DNA from: Nitrososphaerota archaeon
Lineage (GTDB): Archaea > Thermoproteota > Nitrososphaeria > PSMU01
Reading direction: 5' to 3'
DNA: 64,000 nt
Assembly (NCBI GenBank): GCA_040290255.1
Contig: PSMU01000001.1
Span: 96,001-160,000, forward strand
The notes under the pieces are model-generated. The model was not told where the DNA came from and searched no databases. It saw only the letters and a program-made list of their open reading frames with translations. A program made the translations under genes and the position numbers. Of the stretch, positions 39-61,659 are shown one piece after another; position 1 is the first letter of the stretch, and each line of letters opens with the position of its first letter.

Positions 39-130
39 TGGTGGGGTCGGTGGGATTTGAACCCACGATCACGGGCGTTCCCGTCGATAGATCCCGAGGC
101 CCGCAGCTTACCATGCTAGCCCACGACCCC
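39..130 (-). tRNA. tRNA-Pro(CGG), 15-nt intron at 37/38 (78-92), CCA encoded
   Basis: Reverse complement GGGGTCG...CGGGC CT CGG G[ATCTATCGACGGGAA]C GCCCG...TTCAAAT...CGACCCC A CCA; BHB CTCG GG^A / CGGG AA^C. Confidence 0.93.
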
Positions 131-180: not shown

Positions 181-270
181 GCCCCGGTAGCTCAGGAGGT
201 TAGAGCGCGGCACTGGTAATGCCGAGAGGTATGGCCCGGCAAGTCGCGGGTTCGAATCCCGCCCGGGGCT
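181..270 (+). tRNA. tRNA-Thr(GGT), 16-nt non-canonical intron at 45/46 (227-242)
   Basis: GCCCCGG acceptor; CGGCA CT GGT AA TGCCG anticodon arm; variable loop AG[AGGTATGGCCCGGCAA]GTC; relaxed BHB GCCG AG^A / CGGC AA^G. Confidence 0.9.
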
Positions 271-8949: not shown

Positions 8950-10578
8950 ATGTCGGCTACTCAAGCAGGGATACCGGTCTTAATCTTAAAGGAGAGCGCG
9001 CAGAGAACTAAGGGCCGCGAAGCCCAGCTCAACAACATCACGGCCGCTCGTCTTGTTGCAGAACTAATTAAGACGACGCTGGGTCCCAGAGGTATGGATA
9101 AGATGTTGGTAACAAGCTTGGGCGACATTACAATCACAAACGACGGGGCATCAATTATGAAAGAGCTAGACTTGCAGCATCCTGCGGCCAAGATTTTGGT
9201 GGAAGTCGCCAAGACACAAGATAATGAGGTAGGAGATGGGACCACGAGCGTTGTCATCCTAGCGGGAGAGCTGCTGGCCAACGCAGAAAAGCTGCTCAAC
9301 CAGAACATACATCCTCGGATAATCGTTGAGGGCTACAAGCTGGCCGCCGCTAAATGCACCGCCTTATTAGAGGAGATCGCCTTGCCCGTAGGAATCGATG
9401 AGGACGACAAGCTTAGAAAGATAGCTGCCACTTCCATGAGAAGTAAAGGTGTAGCTACGGCTAGGGAGTATCTGGCTGAGCTTGCTGTGCAGGCCGTGAA
9501 ACAGGTACATGAGGTCATCAACGGCAAAATTAAGGCGGACATAGATAGGATAAAGATCGTGAAGAAGCACGGCAAGAGCCTCCTTGAGAGCGAGTTGGTT
9601 AAGGGCATCGTCATCGATAAGGAAATAGCGCATGCCCAGATGCCTAAGCGTGTCGCAGGTGCTAAGATCGCTTTGGTTAACCAGAAGTTCGAGATAGAGA
9701 AGCCGGAAATAAGTGCCGAAATAAGGATAACGAGCCCAGAGCAGATTAAGGCCTTTTTGGACGAGGAGACCAAGATCCTAAGGGAAATGGTCGACAAGGT
9801 CGCATCCGTGAGTGCGAACGTTCTCTTCTGCGAGAAGGGAATGGACGACATAGCCCTTCATTACTTGGCCAAGAGGGGCATCTTGGCCGTCAAGAACGTC
9901 AGCAGCAGCGATATGGAGAAGTTGGCGAAGGCTACAGGCGCTAAAATCGTCAGCAATGTTAACGACCTGACGCCGGAGTTCCTAGGGGAGGCAGGCCTTG
10001 TAGAGGAGCTAAAGGTGGGCGACTCAAAGCTCATCTATGTAAGGGAATGCAAGAATCCGCGCGCCGTAACGGTGGTGCTGAGGGGAGGCAGCGAACACGT
10101 AGTCTCCGAGGCGGAAAGGTCCTTCCATGATGCTCTCTGCGTGGTAAGGGATGCCATTGAGGATGGCAAGTACGTAGCAGGAGGGGGTGCCGTCGAGGCT
10201 GAGCTGGCCGCTAAAGTAAGGGAGTACGCCATCCAAGTTGGCGGGAGGCAGCAACTGGCGATAGAGGCCTTTGCGGAGGCCCTTGAGTCCATACCGCTGA
10301 CCTTAGCGGAGAATGCTGGCTTAGACCCTCTGGACATCCTAGTTAAGATAAGAGCTGCTCATGCAGATCCTAAAGGAAAATGGATGGGCGTGGACGTCTT
10401 TAGCGGCGATATAAAGGATATGCTGCTCCTGAACGTCGTGGAGCCCCTTAGAGTTAAACTCCACCTCGTGAAGGCTGCAACTGAGGCCGCTACCATGATT
10501 TTAAGGATCGATGACATCGTGGTAGCCAAGCCAATGAAGGAAGGCAAAGAAAAAGAGAAGGAGAAGACTGAGAGCTAG
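8950..10578 (+). CDS. ths: Thermosome (group II chaperonin) subunit
   Basis: [20 protein letters not shown]; GGTGA SD upstream. Confidence 0.98.
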
Positions 10579-24397: not shown

Positions 24398-25732
24398 CTA
24401 GAGGCTTAAGCGCTGACCGGACAGCATCTTAATCAGCCTTCCTCTGTTAGATCTCAATAGCTGCCTAGTTCGTTTATAGTATTCCAAGAGTTCCTTGACG
24501 GCCCGCTCATCCCGTCCGGATCCGCTAGCGATCCTCCTAATTCTCCTCCCATCGATTATGTCCGGATTTTCCCGCTCCTGTGGCGTCATAGAGTTTATTA
24601 CGCTTTTCCATACCTTCAGTCTTGACTCTATATCGTCTATGTTTATCTCCCCTCCGCCTATTGGCCCGATGGGAAGCAGCTCAAGAAGCTTCCTAAGCGG
24701 TCCCATCTTTCCCAGTCTCTGAATCTCCCTGAGCAGGTCGTCCAAAGTAAAGCGTCCTGACAGCATTTTCTTCACATACTTCTCCTGATCTTCCTCCTCT
24801 ACCGATGCTTCCTTAACTCTTTGGAGTAGAGCCTCTAGGTCCCCAAGGCCCAGTAACCGAGCTGCGAAGCGTTTAGCGTCGAATACCTCTAAATCATCTA
24901 GCCTGTCTCCGGAACATACGAAGTAGATCTTGGCTCCGATGGCAGCTACAGCCGATAGGGCGCCTCCGCCCTTTGCTGTGCCATCTAGTTTAGTTACCAC
25001 TATGCCGCCAAGGCCAACGGCTTGATTAAATGCGATGGCTTGCGCAGCGCTTTGCTGGCCCATAGCAGCGTCAATAACTAAGAAGGTGAGAGTGGGCTTG
25101 ATCGCTTCGTTAAGTGCTCTGACCTCCATCATTAGGGATCTTTCTTCCTTATGCCTGCCAGCCGTGTCGACTACAACGACATTATAGCCCATATCTCTGA
25201 AATGTTTTGTTCCGGCCTTGGCTATCTCCTCGGCGGAGCTGCCCTCAAGCCAATATACCGGGATGCCAACAGGCGCGACGAGCGACTTTAGCTGTTCGTA
25301 TGCCCCCGGCCTGTATGTATCCGCGCATACTAAGCCAACCTTGTAACCACGTTTTTGGAACCATCGCGCAAGTTTAGCTGCCGTTGTGGTTTTGCCGCTG
25401 CCTTCCAGGCCCACAAGCATTATTATATTGAATTCTCGTGGATCGATGTTTAAATGCGCGGTTCCCTCGCCACCTAGCAGACTCACGAGTTTCTCATAGA
25501 GAAGGCGGATCGCGTGCTCCCTCAGCGAAATGCCTGGAGGGAGCTTCTCCTTTCTCACCTTGTTTTCTATATCGCGAGTTAGACGCGCGACCTGCTCAAC
25601 AGCCACATCTGCTAACAAAAGACTCCGCTGTACATCCTTAGAGAATTCTTCGATTGCCTGCTCGACAGGGGTGGTGCTGCTGAGGAGCCTCTCGATCGCC
25701 CTTGCTAGCCCAGCCCTCAGCTCTGAAAGCAT
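24398..25732 (-). CDS. srp54: Signal recognition particle 54 kDa protein
   Basis: GLEGSGKTTT, DTAGRH, TKLDGTAKGGGA, SMT..ER, RIRRIA.GSG. Confidence 0.97.
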   Translation of the reverse strand: MLSELRAGLARAIERLLSSTTPVEQAIEEFSKDVQRSLLLADVAVEQVARLTRDIENKVRKEKLPPGISLREHAIRLLYEKLVSLLGGEGTAHLNIDPREFNIIMLVGLEGSGKTTTAAKLARWFQKRGYKVGLVCADTYRPGAYEQLKSLVAPVGIPVYWLEGSSAEEIAKAGTKHFRDMGYNVVVVDTAGRHKEERSLMMEVRALNEAIKPTLTFLVIDAAMGQQSAAQAIAFNQAVGLGGIVVTKLDGTAKGGGALSAVAAIGAKIYFVCSGDRLDDLEVFDAKRFAARLLGLGDLEALLQRVKEASVEEEDQEKYVKKMLSGRFTLDDLLREIQRLGKMGPLRKLLELLPIGPIGGGEINIDDIESRLKVWKSVINSMTPQERENPDIIDGRRIRRIASGSGRDERAVKELLEYYKRTRQLLRSNRGRLIKMLSGQRLSL

Positions 25733-25819
25733 TCTCTGGGCTTGAAACTCGCGGCAATTAAAAGCTTTCACTAATGTTTTTATTGCACGCATTGACGCTG
25801 GGCTCGGAGGTGATATGAC

Positions 25820-26234
25820 CTGAGCAAACAGGCCGAACTGGGAGAGGTTAAGGAGGGCAGCTACATGGTAATCGAAGGAGAGCCTTGCAGGATCGTGGAA
25901 GTAGAGAAGAGCAAGCCTGGAAAGTAGCGATATGCTACCCAGGTAGCATGGCTCTGCGAAGGTCAGGGTTGTAGGAATAGGCTTGTTTACCGGCTCGAAG
26001 AGAAGCTATCTAGGACCTGCCGACTCATTAGTAGAAATACCGCTGATCGATAAGCGCATCGCGCAGGTACTCGCGCTCCTGCCTGACAGGGTACAGTTGA
26101 TGGATTTGGAAACTTACGAGGTGTTCGAATCAGATATGCCACAGGAGGAAGGGCTTCGCGGTAAGCTTGAGCAAGGCAGGCAGGTGGAGTATTGGGTGGT
26201 AGGCGGGCGAAGGAAATTAATGAAGCTGCGTTAA
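25820..26234 (+). CDS. eif5a: Translation factor aIF5A, join(25820..25922,25945..26234), 130 aa, CTG start, BHB intron
   Basis: Spliced product [51 protein letters not shown]...; SD GGAGGTGA at 25806-25813. Confidence 0.93.
25923..25944 (+). other. 22-nt BHB mRNA intron in aIF5A
   Basis: GC CTGG AA^A GTAGC GATAT GCTAC CCAG GT^A GC; removal gives GGA A|AG CAT. Confidence 0.9.
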
Positions 26235-26275
26235 GGAACAAAATTTAATAAGCTCGAGCCTGCCTGTAGGCATCT

Positions 26276-26443
26276 GTGAGCAGCAGAAGGAAAAGGGAAG
26301 CGCCGCTGCCTGCCTCGGGCGCCGGGCTTCTGCGGTTCTTTGAGGATGAGACGAAAGGGATTAAGATCAGGCCCGAGGCCGTCGCAGCGATGTCGATCAT
26401 ACTGGTAGCGGTCTCGATACTGATTAAAATACTGATACGCTAG
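26276..26443 (+). CDS. secG: Preprotein translocase subunit Sec61-beta (55 aa; absent from ORF track)
   Basis: MSSRRKREAPLPASGAGLLRFFEDETKGIKIRPE followed by a TM helix. Confidence 0.92.
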   Translation: MSSRRKREAPLPASGAGLLRFFEDETKGIKIRPEAVAAMSIILVAVSILIKILIR

Positions 26444-26454
26444 GGCCTCGCGTA

Positions 26455-28212
26455 GTGAGCTGGAAGGCCCTTCCACCCAAGAGGCGCTATATAATATCAA
26501 TACCGCCGCTTTGGGCAAACCTGGTTTTGTATGTGGCCCTGCAGTTAGTACTCGCTTTCTCTTCGCCGTCTAAATGGATAGTGCCGTGGAGTGCAGCGAC
26601 GCAGTTAATTGCGTTACTGACAGTACCTCTGCTGTTTGGGTCCGGCACCGTGGTGCCTCACGGGGTAATAAGTAACCGGATGATCTTCTCTTCGAATGTT
26701 GCTAGCGTGATATATATAGTAGAAGTTACGATCATGAGATTCGCCAGGGGTTCGGATATCACCTTGGCAGAGCTCATGGTGCCCCTCTCAATGGGATATG
26801 CCTTTTCATTTATCGTAATCCGCTCCCTCTGTTTTCCCAACGGATATCTAGCCAGCGCGCTTAGCGTCCTTTGCGTGGCAACTCCCTTGGTAGAAGGCCT
26901 AGCGGTTGGAAGCGTGGCTGGCCAGTCACCTGTGCGCGCCTCTCTCCTGTTCATTCCCTCCATTTCCACGGTCTTCACATTAGTGCTCTCGGCCCATGCG
27001 GTCATTCGTAGGGGAAAAGCGGTTCTTAAGGAGGATCCCACGGTGATCCTGCCGGCGCTGCTTGAGGCCTGGAGAGGAAGGAATACGACATCGATCGAGC
27101 GGTGGCTAGAGGGCAAGGCCGAGCGAGCAAGGCTGAGCAATTATCTCCTATACTTTCGGTCTATTGATTCTAACGCGGCACAAGGCATATGGGCTATACT
27201 TGGCGCTCACCCAGGGCCCTTCAACCCGTTAGGCTCATATAATTTGCCGAGCCAAGTATATTCTTATCTTAAGCGTGCTTTGGGTAACGTCCCTACGTGC
27301 GTCTTTCATGGTCCGTCTACACATGAATTCGATTTGGTCTCGGCACGCGAGGTCATGAAATACCTGCAAGGCTTAACGCAAACGCAGCCCGATTATATCT
27401 CATCGGGGATATCTAGGGCAGAACTCCTAGTAAAGGATGCTGAATCAGCTTTTCCCTCACTCCTCTGGCTGGGCAAAGACCTGGTGCTATTTACTGGCCG
27501 AGCCTTAGACCCTTATAGTGATGATGTCGCGCCAGATCTGATCGGCGCCTTGCGCGACGCTTTGCGACTGGGGCATGCTAAGTGTGTGGTAATAGATGTG
27601 CACAATGGCATTACCTCACTAAGTAATGGAGAGGAACGTCTATCCAGCATGGGGAGTGAGTTAAACAACCTAATAAGAACGAATGAGGGCCCGAGGCAGG
27701 AGTCGCTGGTAGCGGGGTTTGCCGAAGTGGCCAAGAACCAGCTCTTGGATGTTATAGAGGTAGGGCCGGCTGGGGTCTGCTTCACCTACTTATCCAATGG
27801 ACAGCAGGCGTTGGGCGTAGTAGTGTTTGACGCGAATAGTATAGTTCCTACTGTGGCTAGATCGCTGACGAAGCTCTGCTCAGAACGCCTTGGTTACCCG
27901 ATATTGCTATGCACCACAGATAATCATATCACGGCTAGTGATGTCACATCACGTCACGGATATCTAAAACTGGCTCAAGTGACCGGAGTCGAGCGACTGG
28001 CTGACATAATTCTGGGCGGCATGTTGACCGCCCAAGCCAAGGCCGGGCGCGTTGTCGTCGATTTGCACGAGATACATACGGAGAGCCTAGTACTGGGTAA
28101 TCTGTTGAACGCCATTTCCGAACTCACGGAATTCGCTTCACGCGTTGTGCCGCGCGGCCTCTTATTGAGCTTAGCCCTACACGTTGTTGCCTTCGCAGGC
28201 AGTTTGCTCTAA
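26455..28212 (+). CDS. DUF2070-like membrane protein
   Basis: Multiple N-terminal TMs; HPGPF..GS.NLP, HGP.THE.D, IDVHN, TTDNH. Confidence 0.82.
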   Translation: MSWKALPPKRRYIISIPPLWANLVLYVALQLVLAFSSPSKWIVPWSAATQLIALLTVPLLFGSGTVVPHGVISNRMIFSSNVASVIYIVEVTIMRFARGSDITLAELMVPLSMGYAFSFIVIRSLCFPNGYLASALSVLCVATPLVEGLAVGSVAGQSPVRASLLFIPSISTVFTLVLSAHAVIRRGKAVLKEDPTVILPALLEAWRGRNTTSIERWLEGKAERARLSNYLLYFRSIDSNAAQGIWAILGAHPGPFNPLGSYNLPSQVYSYLKRALGNVPTCVFHGPSTHEFDLVSAREVMKYLQGLTQTQPDYISSGISRAELLVKDAESAFPSLLWLGKDLVLFTGRALDPYSDDVAPDLIGALRDALRLGHAKCVVIDVHNGITSLSNGEERLSSMGSELNNLIRTNEGPRQESLVAGFAEVAKNQLLDVIEVGPAGVCFTYLSNGQQALGVVVFDANSIVPTVARSLTKLCSERLGYPILLCTTDNHITASDVTSRHGYLKLAQVTGVERLADIILGGMLTAQAKAGRVVVDLHEIHTESLVLGNLLNAISELTEFASRVVPRGLLLSLALHVVAFAGSLL

Positions 28213-35226: not shown

Positions 35227-35318
35227 TGGCGGGCCCGGTGGGATTCGAACCCACGACCTACGGGTCTCTCTACAGCGGTCTAAGAGCCCGCCGCTCTACC
35301 GTGCTGAGCTACGGGCCC
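35227..35318 (-). tRNA. tRNA-Lys(CTT), 15-nt intron at 37/38 (35266-35280), CCA encoded
   Basis: GCGGG CT CTT A[GACCGCTGTAGAGAG]A CCCGT; perfect BHB. Confidence 0.94.
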
Positions 35319-43193: not shown

Positions 43194-44346
43194 TCACTTA
43201 TCCGCCTCGACAGGCCAATAATTTAGTGACCAGAAGGATACGGGAACGTCGGCAAGGCGATACCCTTCTATAACCTTCGGTATGGCCGGCAGGTTCCTAA
43301 AGGAGGGAGTCGAGATGCGCACTCTGTAAGGATGAGGACCTCCGTCGGAGATTATATGGTAGGACATGCAGCCTCGGGCGGCCTCGGTTCTGGCGTAGGC
43401 TTCCCCCACCCTGCCTCGTAACTGCCCTCTTAGGGGCAGCCTGACAGGGCCCGGCCTCATCTTCCTGATCGCCTGTTTGATGATCTTTAGGGACTCCAAC
43501 ATCTCGTAGAAGCATACCCAACAGCGCGCCCATGAATCCCCCTCCTGCATAACTGGAACCGAAAACTCGAAGGTATCATAGAGCGAGTAGGGCTCGTCTA
43601 TCCTTACATCCGATTTAACGCCGGAGGCCCTAAGGGTTGGGCCTACGCATCCTAGGGCTATGGCATCCGCCTTGCTCAGGAAGCCCACGTCCATAGTCCT
43701 TTTTTCGAAAACAGGGTTTTCAAAGTAGATTTTCTTGTACTCTTGGAGCCTGCCCTCGAAGTACTCGCAGACTTTAAGCACCTTATCTTCCCAGCTGGGA
43801 GGCACATCACACCTTACCCCACCAGGCACATAGTAGGCAAAGGTAACCCTAGCGCCTGAGGCCATGGCAGCCAAGTCGATAAAGTACTCGCGATCCCCGG
43901 TTGCCCACATGAACATCGTGCTGTGACCCGTAAATATGCCCTGTATGGCAAGCCAGTACAAGTGGCTGATAATCCTGTTAAATTCCGCCATTATCACGCG
44001 CAGGTATTGCGCGCGTTCCGGCACCTTCTCGCTCAACCCTAGCAATTCTTCTACCGCCAGCACATAAGGAAACAATATGCCACATGAGTCTAAGATTACA
44101 GGCCGTTCAAGGTGAGGTATATTCTGAATATAGGTCCTATACTCGCACATTTTCTCCTCGCCCCGGTGGACGTACCCTGGGTCGGGGATACACTTGATGA
44201 CGATATCGCCATCTAAGGTCACTATTAGCCTAAAGTGCCCACTTCCCGGATGTTCCCCCCTACTAGGTCTGGGGACCTATTGAGACAGTGAGCACGTTAT
44301 CTGCTACTCGCTCCTCTGTGTAGACATGTTTGAGTGCCGACTCCAA
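43194..44346 (-). CDS. nuoD: NADH-quinone oxidoreductase subunit D, complement(join(43194..44252,44269..44346)), about 378 aa, BHB intron (TTG start; GTG at 44355 possible)
   Basis: Spliced ...TVSIGPQHPGSGHFRLIVTLDGD...PGYVHRGEEK...EAARG..; no NiFe CxxC motifs. Confidence 0.9.
44253..44268 (-). other. 16-nt BHB mRNA intron in nuoD
   Basis: GGT CCCC AG^A CCT AGT AGG GGGG AA^C ATC; removal gives CCC CAG|CAT CCG. Confidence 0.87.
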
Positions 44347-44468
44347 GAGGACCACCGCATCACGCTTAAGGCTACGAGCTTTTAAACCTGCCCCTGCCGT
44401 TCTTGCGGCCCAGCTATTAGGCGAGAAAAAGCCTTTTTACCAAGCGAAGCCTTGGCCTGGATAACAGC

Positions 44469-60605: not shown

Positions 60606-60693
60606 GGGGCCGTCGTCCAGCTTGGTTAGGATGCCAGCCTGAACTCTTGGCTAAGGGCGCTGGTGGTCCTGGGTTCAAATCCCAGCGGCCCCA
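60606..60693 (+). tRNA. tRNA-Pro(GGG), 13-nt intron inside the anticodon at 34/35 (60642-60654)
   Basis: CCAGC CT G[AACTCTTGGCTAA]GG GC GCTGG; BHB AGCC TG^A / GGCT AA^G. Confidence 0.88.
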
Positions 60694-60711
60694 CTTAGCC
60701 CATCCATCCTC

Positions 60712-61659
60712 TCACCGCACAGTCGCCTTACGCCCGCGCACCTCAAGCAGGGCATGAGCTAGAAAGGGCAGGACGATGGTGGCATCGCTGTGTACGGTGA
60801 CGTGCTTGGCGCTCTTGGCTATCTTGCCCCAGCTAATCGCTTCCTTCGTTAAGGCGCCGCTTAGGCTTCCATCATACTCAGCAGCGGTGGTGATATAGAC
60901 CGCATAGGTTAGCCCCCCGCGATACTGGCTCCACCAGATGAGATGGTGCTTCGAGACACCACCTCCTATTATCAGGCCCCCCAGCCTTTTGGCGCTGAAG
61001 ATCATCTCGGCCAGCAAGTCCTGGTCCTGCATAAGATCTACGTGGAAGGACTTGTCCTTCTGATGGGCAAGCCAGAATTGGTGGCCTACAGCGCCATCGA
61101 AGGGCGCCGGGACAATTATAGGGACCCTGTTCTTGGCGGCCCACCACAGGATGCTGGATTCATCGCATAGCCGCTCGCCCATTCTCCAAAGAATTTCATG
61201 GAAGGGCTTATTCGCCAGCTCTTCCATGCCCTCCTTCTCCAGGAAGAGGCGCACCTTCTCCTCGATTAACGGGCCGTAGGCCTCCCTAGGTATGTATACA
61301 TTGCCCAGGCGGTGATAGCCCCGCCTAAGTAGCTCGACATCATCTGCGTAAAAGGAGCCAGCGTAGTAGTGGCCATAGCATCTCGCTAAGTCATGGTCTA
61401 CGGTGCCGCAGGTCGTAATTATGACATCGAAAAACTTTCTCTTTACGAACTCCACCAACACGCCCCTAATGCCCGTGCCGACCATCGCGGCCGGGAAGGA
61501 TAGAAGCCTGAGGCAGTCGGCGTCGTCCAGCATGCTCCTAAGGATTTGAAAGGCCTCGCCTAGGTGCCTGCCCCCGAACCCACCCATATCGCTCATCTGG
61601 TAAAGGATGCGAGTGTAATCCCTGCCCGTGATGCGTAGGTCCCTGACTTTCCTCAGCAT
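60712..61659 (-). CDS. dys: Deoxyhypusine synthase
   Basis: TG.R, ITT.G, HRLGNV, GGGVSKHH, DGSLSGA...EAISWGK. Confidence 0.96.
   Translation of the reverse strand: MLRKVRDLRITGRDYTRILYQMSDMGGFGGRHLGEAFQILRSMLDDADCLRLLSFPAAMVGTGIRGVLVEFVKRKFFDVIITTCGTVDHDLARCYGHYYAGSFYADDVELLRRGYHRLGNVYIPREAYGPLIEEKVRLFLEKEGMEELANKPFHEILWRMGERLCDESSILWWAAKNRVPIIVPAPFDGAVGHQFWLAHQKDKSFHVDLMQDQDLLAEMIFSAKRLGGLIIGGGVSKHHLIWWSQYRGGLTYAVYITTAAEYDGSLSGALTKEAISWGKIAKSAKHVTVHSDATIVLPFLAHALLEVRGRKATVR

Follow-up and report, generated by a model that had tools for sequence, protein, structure and literature searches.

A probable tRNA-type intron in the hypusine codon of the aIF5A gene, conserved in some lineages of Nitrososphaeria

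In a 64,000-nt stretch of DNA from an archaeon of the class Nitrososphaeria (hereafter the window), the aIF5A gene is interrupted inside the codon for its hypusine-site lysine, and the insert is very probably a genuine archaeal bulge-helix-bulge (BHB, tRNA-type) pre-mRNA intron, its cleavage and ligation being predicted from sequence. The finding is larger than first noted: on comparison of relatives, a conserved, covarying BHB element of this kind, a predicted intron, is present at the same site in at least 20 Nitrososphaeria genomes, those of heat-loving ammonia oxidisers among them.

The split aIF5A locus and its bulge-helix-bulge structure

The upstream piece of the gene occupies a + strand frame from 25814, has a typical N-terminus and ends ...EVEKSKPGK immediately before a TAG (25925-25927), while the downstream piece, in another frame, opens at 25947 with HGSAKVRV... 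and stops at a TAA (26232-26234). Profiles for the family run across the interruption: Pfam IF5A-like_N matches at 6-36 on the upstream piece and 37-60 on the downstream piece, NCBIfam NF003076 at 4-36 and 37-128 of 129, and TIGR00037 at 5-37 and 38-129 of 130. Because the halves of the IF-5A profile abut at 36|37, with no position lost or doubled, the two pieces are exact halves of one aIF5A. Taken alone, the downstream piece reaches 89.4 bits, which exceeds the cut-off of 75.45 for TIGR00037. The features of the locus and of the gene for the enzyme that modifies the lysine are as follows.

25806..25814, + strand: Shine-Dalgarno-like GGAGGTGAT upstream of aIF5A, read directly from the sequence
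25820..25822, + strand: probable aIF5A start codon CTG, 5 nt past GGAGGTGAT and homologous to the TTG of family f5 relatives
25820..25922, + strand: aIF5A exon 1, 34 codons plus base 1 of the hypusine-site Lys codon (NF003076 4-36)
25915..25947, + strand: BHB motif, with outer helix h (2 bp), 3-nt bulge, central helix H (4 bp), 3-nt bulge and inner helix h' (5 bp plus loop)
25915-16 (GC) with 25946-47 (GC), + strand: outer helix, 2 bp
25917-20 (CTGG) with 25939-42 (CCAG), + strand: central helix, 4 bp
25921-23, + strand: 5' bulge, 3 nt (AAA)
25924-28 with 25934-38, + strand: inner stem, 5 bp
25943-45, + strand: 3' bulge, 3 nt (GTA)
25923..25944, + strand: predicted intron, 22 nt, cut after the second nucleotide of each bulge (BHB rule, frame restored)
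25945..26234, + strand: aIF5A exon 2, the last two Lys codon bases and HGSAK... to TAA (NF003076 37-128)
60712..61659, - strand: deoxyhypusine synthase, modifier of the Lys encoded across the junction (PF01916, E 3.9e-100, profile 2-287 of 288, intact)

Deleting 25923-25944 in silico gives a single open frame of 130 codons from CTG 25820 with the universal KPGKHG loop, which is present only once the exons are joined. The lysine codon is rebuilt from A (25922) and AG (25945-46), placing the intron between codon bases 1 and 2; deletion of 25924-25945 or 25925-25946 yields the identical product, since an AG occurs at each border. The initial annotation, made from the window alone, had described a 22-nt insert inside the hypusine-lysine codon with an A|AG join, a spliced product of 130 residues, an unspliced frame stopping directly after K35 and an intact deoxyhypusine synthase at 60712-61659. 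Each of these points was borne out, with K35 the last residue before the TAG in the unspliced frame.

The 5' end of the gene contains no in-frame ATG, GTG or TTG before M18. In eight relatives the homologous codon is a TTG start preceded, at a distance of 5-6 nt, by a GGTGA-type motif, and family f5 relatives carry TTG followed by Ser at the position of CTG 25820. A frameshift at the 5' end, suggested by an out-of-frame ATG at 25815 that meets a stop after two codons, was also considered; the TTG starts of the relatives favor a CTG start instead. CTG 25820 is thus the probable start of aIF5A, and would be a rare start codon.

Genes on both sides lie close to the locus. Divergently upstream is an SRP54-like gene (24398-26005, - strand, recognized by eye from its translation), whose stop-to-stop frame of 535 aa covers exon 1 and the intron and reaches into exon 2 from the opposite strand, its real start probably lying near 25740. 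Downstream, a small + strand frame (26270-26443) with a hydrophobic tail resembles by eye a Sec61-beta/SecG-type protein.

The geometry of the BHB is as first described, with the qualification that the open 3' bulge belongs to a suboptimal fold in the source genome. A 53-nt segment folds at -20.9 kcal/mol (z -3.27), a value equalled by 1 of 200 shuffled sequences, and a 37-nt segment reaches a z of -3.55, equalled by none of 200. In the fold of lowest energy, the 5' bulge is retained along with the central helix and inner stem, but G25943 and U25944 pair with C25916 and G25915, which closes the 3' bulge. At -10.8 kcal/mol against -15.4 kcal/mol, the canonical BHB is 4.6 kcal/mol worse than this fold, and cleavage in the source genome would need an enzyme that imposes the motif or tolerates a relaxed one. 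For three relatives (loci L144, L131 and L136), energy minimization yields the canonical hBHBh' directly. A search of the source genome for further copies of the intron, allowing 5 mismatches over the 22-mer and 8 over the 33-nt motif, found none.

Probable same-site introns in relatives and rival explanations

Twenty distinct genomes of the class Nitrososphaeria, the source genome and 19 others, carry an intron-like insert at this position. Of 401 class genomes scanned with a pattern that covers the motif, 15 matched, namely the source, all 10 of family f11 and all four of family f14, and none of the 224 genomes in family f4 or the 78 in family f12 did; a reversed control pattern had no match in the 401. 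Family f11 is the Nitrosocaldaceae (Ca. Nitrosocaldus and Ca. Nitrosothermus), and family f14 is Nitrosomirales-like, with one 'Ca. Nitrosomirales' genome in it. In the survey of these 401 genomes, 385 of which had an aIF5A match, the reading frame ends exactly at the His codon in every one of the 10 f11 genomes and in three of the f14 genomes listed. Five unpublished genomes (G364, G131, G230, G282 and G326) are counted in these class tallies only, and none of the five bears the intron.

A survey of genome contigs returned 80 aIF5A loci, 18 interrupted and 62 intact, the intact ones mostly from Nitrososphaeraceae, and among the first 40 class relatives searched, the 38 with a match were all uninterrupted, with KxGKHG (seen by direct reading of 29 loci). 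Metagenome contigs gave another 80 loci at no more than 63% identity, of which 79 were intact and one was cut by a contig end.

The inserts measure 17, 21, 22, 30, 31, 32, 35 and 40 nt across 32 loci with 20 distinct sequences, and so fall in all three phases; those that keep the frame contain stop codons. KPGKHG reappears in 32/32 loci and 20/20 sequences when both bulges are cut after their second nucleotide, and the junction always falls between lysine codon bases 1 and 2. Eleven core pairs are formed in 218 of 220 cells (99.1%; alignment A2, 20 sequences), compared with 13.6-37.3% in a control in which the partners were slid by 1-3 columns. Three of the five core pairs of the inner helix change on both sides (CG16/UA4, GC11/AU8 and CG10/UA10), and this helix ranges from 3 to 11 bp across the 20 sequences. 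For the 2-bp outer helix, one pair is formed in 20/20 sequences and the other in 19/20. The central helix is paired in all 20 genomes and invariant, hence without covariation signal, because one of its strands encodes Pro-Gly. As read from the alignment, the BHB structure is under selection.

Individual introns differ in detail. The shortest, 17 nt, occurs in Ca. Nitrosothermus koennekii (locus L142, about 672-703), where the Lys codon is rebuilt as AAA; this locus lacks a stop codon immediately ahead of the His codon, its outer helix is unformed and its BHB is of the relaxed type. The 22-nt introns of the source genome and of family f14 share an architecture of a 5-bp stem and a 5-nt loop, and about 13 of their 22 bases as read by eye.

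The initial annotation had proposed a survey of aIF5A in related genomes, and this survey was decisive, since it returned the same-site intron with compensatory changes in 19 other genomes. It bears first on translational recoding, in which ribosomes would bypass or frameshift over the insert as in T4 gene 60, without RNA splicing. The stop directly after the Lys codon, followed by a hairpin, superficially resembles a take-off site; however, no landing codon matching AAG precedes the CAT, the 20 genomes have inserts of 17-40 nt that represent every phase, with only BHB-defined cuts restoring KPGKHG in all of these genomes, and the element that is conserved and covarying is the BHB, the recognition motif of the splicing endonuclease. 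We consider recoding very unlikely.

Still less credence is due to a decaying pseudogene, that is, an aIF5A inactivated by insertion whose function was lost or taken over by another copy. The frame is indeed broken, and the source genome (1.21 Mb in 9 contigs, metagenome-assembled) is 91% complete, which leaves room for a second copy outside the assembly. An intact second copy, named at the outset as a possible refutation, was sought in the source genome and none was found, aIF5A having one locus there. All five intron-bearing relatives tested likewise have only one aIF5A locus, which is split, including G115, a one-contig, 99%-complete genome with the interrupted copy only. The interruption is moreover conserved across three families, and deoxyhypusine synthase is intact.

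Strain-level differences also argue against decay. In strain X6, 96% identical to the source, 40 of 1001 positions differ, 38 of which are listed; among those listed, the exons account for 16, of which 13 are synonymous and 3 are non-synonymous (6 and 0 in exon 1, 7 and 3 in exon 2), and the remaining two of the 40 could lie in aIF5A. With each exon counted in its own frame, the listed differences correspond to a pN/pS of about 0.07 (S 89, N 301 sites), and the sole listed change in the intron, at 25932, falls in the loop. Judged by this strong excess of synonymous differences, both exons are under purifying selection in their separate frames.

About as improbable as decay is a split gene, whose two separately translated polypeptides, of 35 aa and about 95 aa, would assemble into aIF5A. 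While both pieces are conserved as coding sequence, exon 2 lacks a start codon at its 5' end (scanning in frame for ATG, GTG or TTG reaches only a TTG, roughly 13 codons downstream), the modified lysine would be the C-terminal residue of the 35-mer and the conserved BHB would be left unexplained. An assembly or sequencing artefact is the least probable explanation of all: the source genome was assembled from a metagenome and consists of 9 contigs, yet nineteen other genomes have an insert at the same site, and the 22 nt, sought in independent DNA assemblies as another possible refutation, were present without indel in Logan contigs covering 25500-26500 from all four DNA runs examined (four coded studies, although runs X6 and X7 look like one data set).

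Together, insert lengths, cut rule, covariation and copy number rule out frameshifting, bypassing, pseudogenisation and artefact as explanations that hold in general, and endonuclease-ligase splicing, as judged from these comparisons, is the sole mechanism that fits all 20 genomes. The splicing interpretation put forward in the initial annotation is thereby supported, decisively so by the conserved intron of the relatives, with excision itself predicted.

Splicing machinery, proposed mechanism and evolutionary history

The source genome encodes two EndA paralogs (open frames of 184 and 189 aa, both PF01974) as well as RtcB. Two EndA paralogs were likewise found in all five intron-bearing relatives tested, and RtcB in the six intron-bearing genomes searched. 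According to PMC5829648, non-canonical introns are cleaved only by the two-subunit heterotetrameric and epsilon2 endonuclease types, and the cut between the second and third bulge residues is described for cbf5 introns in PMC2738675. Applied to the source genome's own tRNA introns in Ser-GCT, Arg-GCG, Lys-CTT and Lys-TTT, this 2|3 rule reproduces the mature sequences given by aragorn exactly.

Aragorn placed an intron in 24 of the 43 tRNA genes it predicted; a few of these introns are implausibly long and most of the rest measure 10-20 nt. Within the window lie tRNA genes of 89-92 nt, most with short introns, at 39-130 (- strand), 181-270 (+ strand), 35227-35318 (- strand) and 60606-60694 (+ strand). 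Aragorn's name for the last of these changes with its settings: Phe(gaa) if no introns are sought, Leu(gag) carrying a 13-nt intron if they are.

In the mechanism that we propose, the exonic Pro-Gly codons (CCU GG) would pair with an intronic CCAG to form the 4-bp central helix between two 3-nt bulges, and a heteromeric endonuclease composed of the two EndA paralogs would cut after the second nucleotide of each bulge. Joining of the exons by RtcB would then recreate AAG (Lys) and the 130-codon aIF5A frame, and an mRNA left unspliced would give only a 35-residue peptide.

Further mRNA introns were sought in the source genome by a loose genome-wide BHB scan, which returned 42,879 motifs. A filter for the joining of open reading frames retained 9,923 real candidates compared with 9,836-10,066 for decoys with shifted cuts, and an added codon-usage filter, which missed aIF5A itself, retained 1,162 compared with 1,124-1,247, giving no signal above background. 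Ninety-eight short mRNA-intron candidates mostly look like gene boundaries. One candidate, a 16-nt BHB-like motif (44253-44268, - strand) upstream of NuoD, lacks domain continuity and was rejected as a gene boundary; the NuoD-like gene that it precedes lies at 43197-44436 on the - strand (PF00346, E 9.5e-80).

The history of the intron was considered on a tree of RtcB (28 rows, quick method, midpoint-rooted), from which G022 and G080, two of the 29 genomes queried, are absent for lack of a match. The source genome, a 1.2-Mb, order-level lone lineage of Nitrososphaeria and alone in its order among the genomes surveyed, is sister (SH-aLRT 94) to a clade (99) of families f11, f14, f4 and f12, and the intron label requires two changes. 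Given this sister position to the ammonia oxidisers, one early gain plus a loss needs two changes, and two independent gains need equally few. The distribution suggests that the intron is probably old, gained once before the ammonia-oxidiser radiation and lost in f4 and f12 (Nitrosopumilaceae- and Nitrososphaeraceae-like). An amoA query had no match in the 91%-complete source genome, and its control query likewise had no match anywhere; the source lineage may be closely related to the ammonia oxidisers without oxidising ammonia itself.

More speculatively, an ancient intron might have been kept in thermophilic early branches since splicing at the hypusine codon gates aIF5A synthesis, and lost in mesophilic crown groups, a scenario that we regard as unlikely. 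If gating of this kind did occur, the output of an essential translation factor would be tied to tRNA-splicing capacity or to temperature-dependent RNA folding, and the archaeal intron would be a counterpart of regulated mRNA splicing of the HAC1/XBP1 type.

Significance and comparison with known systems

In these lineages, gene callers will miss aIF5A or present it as a truncated or frameshifted gene, which affects annotation. IF-5A is included in archaeal marker sets, and completeness estimates and marker-gene phylogenies would be affected wherever aIF5A is among the markers used. A second such intron, located in another class and in a translation factor that is both essential and universally conserved, would mean that the tRNA machinery splices mRNAs beyond a one-gene curiosity, and Ca. 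Nitrosocaldus, cultured or enriched, offers organisms for testing. The apparent retention of the intron since before the ammonia-oxidiser radiation, together with its location in the hypusine codon, raises questions on intron gain, loss and possible regulation.

In the literature searched, cbf5 is the sole precedent of a BHB intron in an archaeal protein-coding gene. A 2020 paper (PMC7714728) gives cbf5 as the only BHB intron reported by then besides those of tRNA and rRNA, and itself adds a case from a Haloferax 5' UTR; the initial annotation had named cbf5 as the established example of an archaeal mRNA intron. For mRNA introns, the reference list of a 2025 endonuclease paper (PMC12397907) gives only the cbf5 work. 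We found no report of the aIF5A intron in the literature searched, which leaves out most subscription journals, and an earlier mention is possible.

The cbf5 intron of Crenarchaeota (Watanabe 2002; Yokobori 2009, PMC2738675) is likewise a short BHB intron (16-44 bp) in a gene of the translation and RNA machinery, cut between the second and third bulge residues, there by a hetero-oligomeric endonuclease, and patchy in distribution in a way that implies gain and loss. The two differ in host gene and lineage, aIF5A in Nitrososphaeria as opposed to cbf5 in Sulfolobales or Desulfurococcales, and the aIF5A intron lies within the codon of a post-translationally modified residue. Splicing of cbf5 was shown by cDNA, whereas excision of the aIF5A intron is predicted; the source genome's own cbf5 is uninterrupted. 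HVO_1309 of Haloferax volcanii, which has a BHB intron in its 5' UTR, supplies another mRNA substrate of the archaeal splicing endonuclease, but, as described in PMC7714728, that intron lies outside the reading frame and leaves it untouched, and it belongs to a euryarchaeon with a homodimer-type enzyme.

Archaeal tRNA introns share both the motif and the cut rule, which the source genome's own tRNA introns of 11-15 nt obey. In the case of aIF5A, however, the substrate would be an mRNA, and the exonic strand of the central helix consists of Pro-Gly codons rather than the anticodon. In eukaryotes, HAC1/XBP1 mRNAs undergo a non-spliceosomal excision in which an endonuclease, IRE1, acts first and RtcB or a tRNA ligase follows, the reading frame being changed and splicing being regulated by stress. 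The aIF5A intron would depend on a different endonuclease, and a regulatory role comparable to that of HAC1/XBP1 splicing is for now a hypothesis only.
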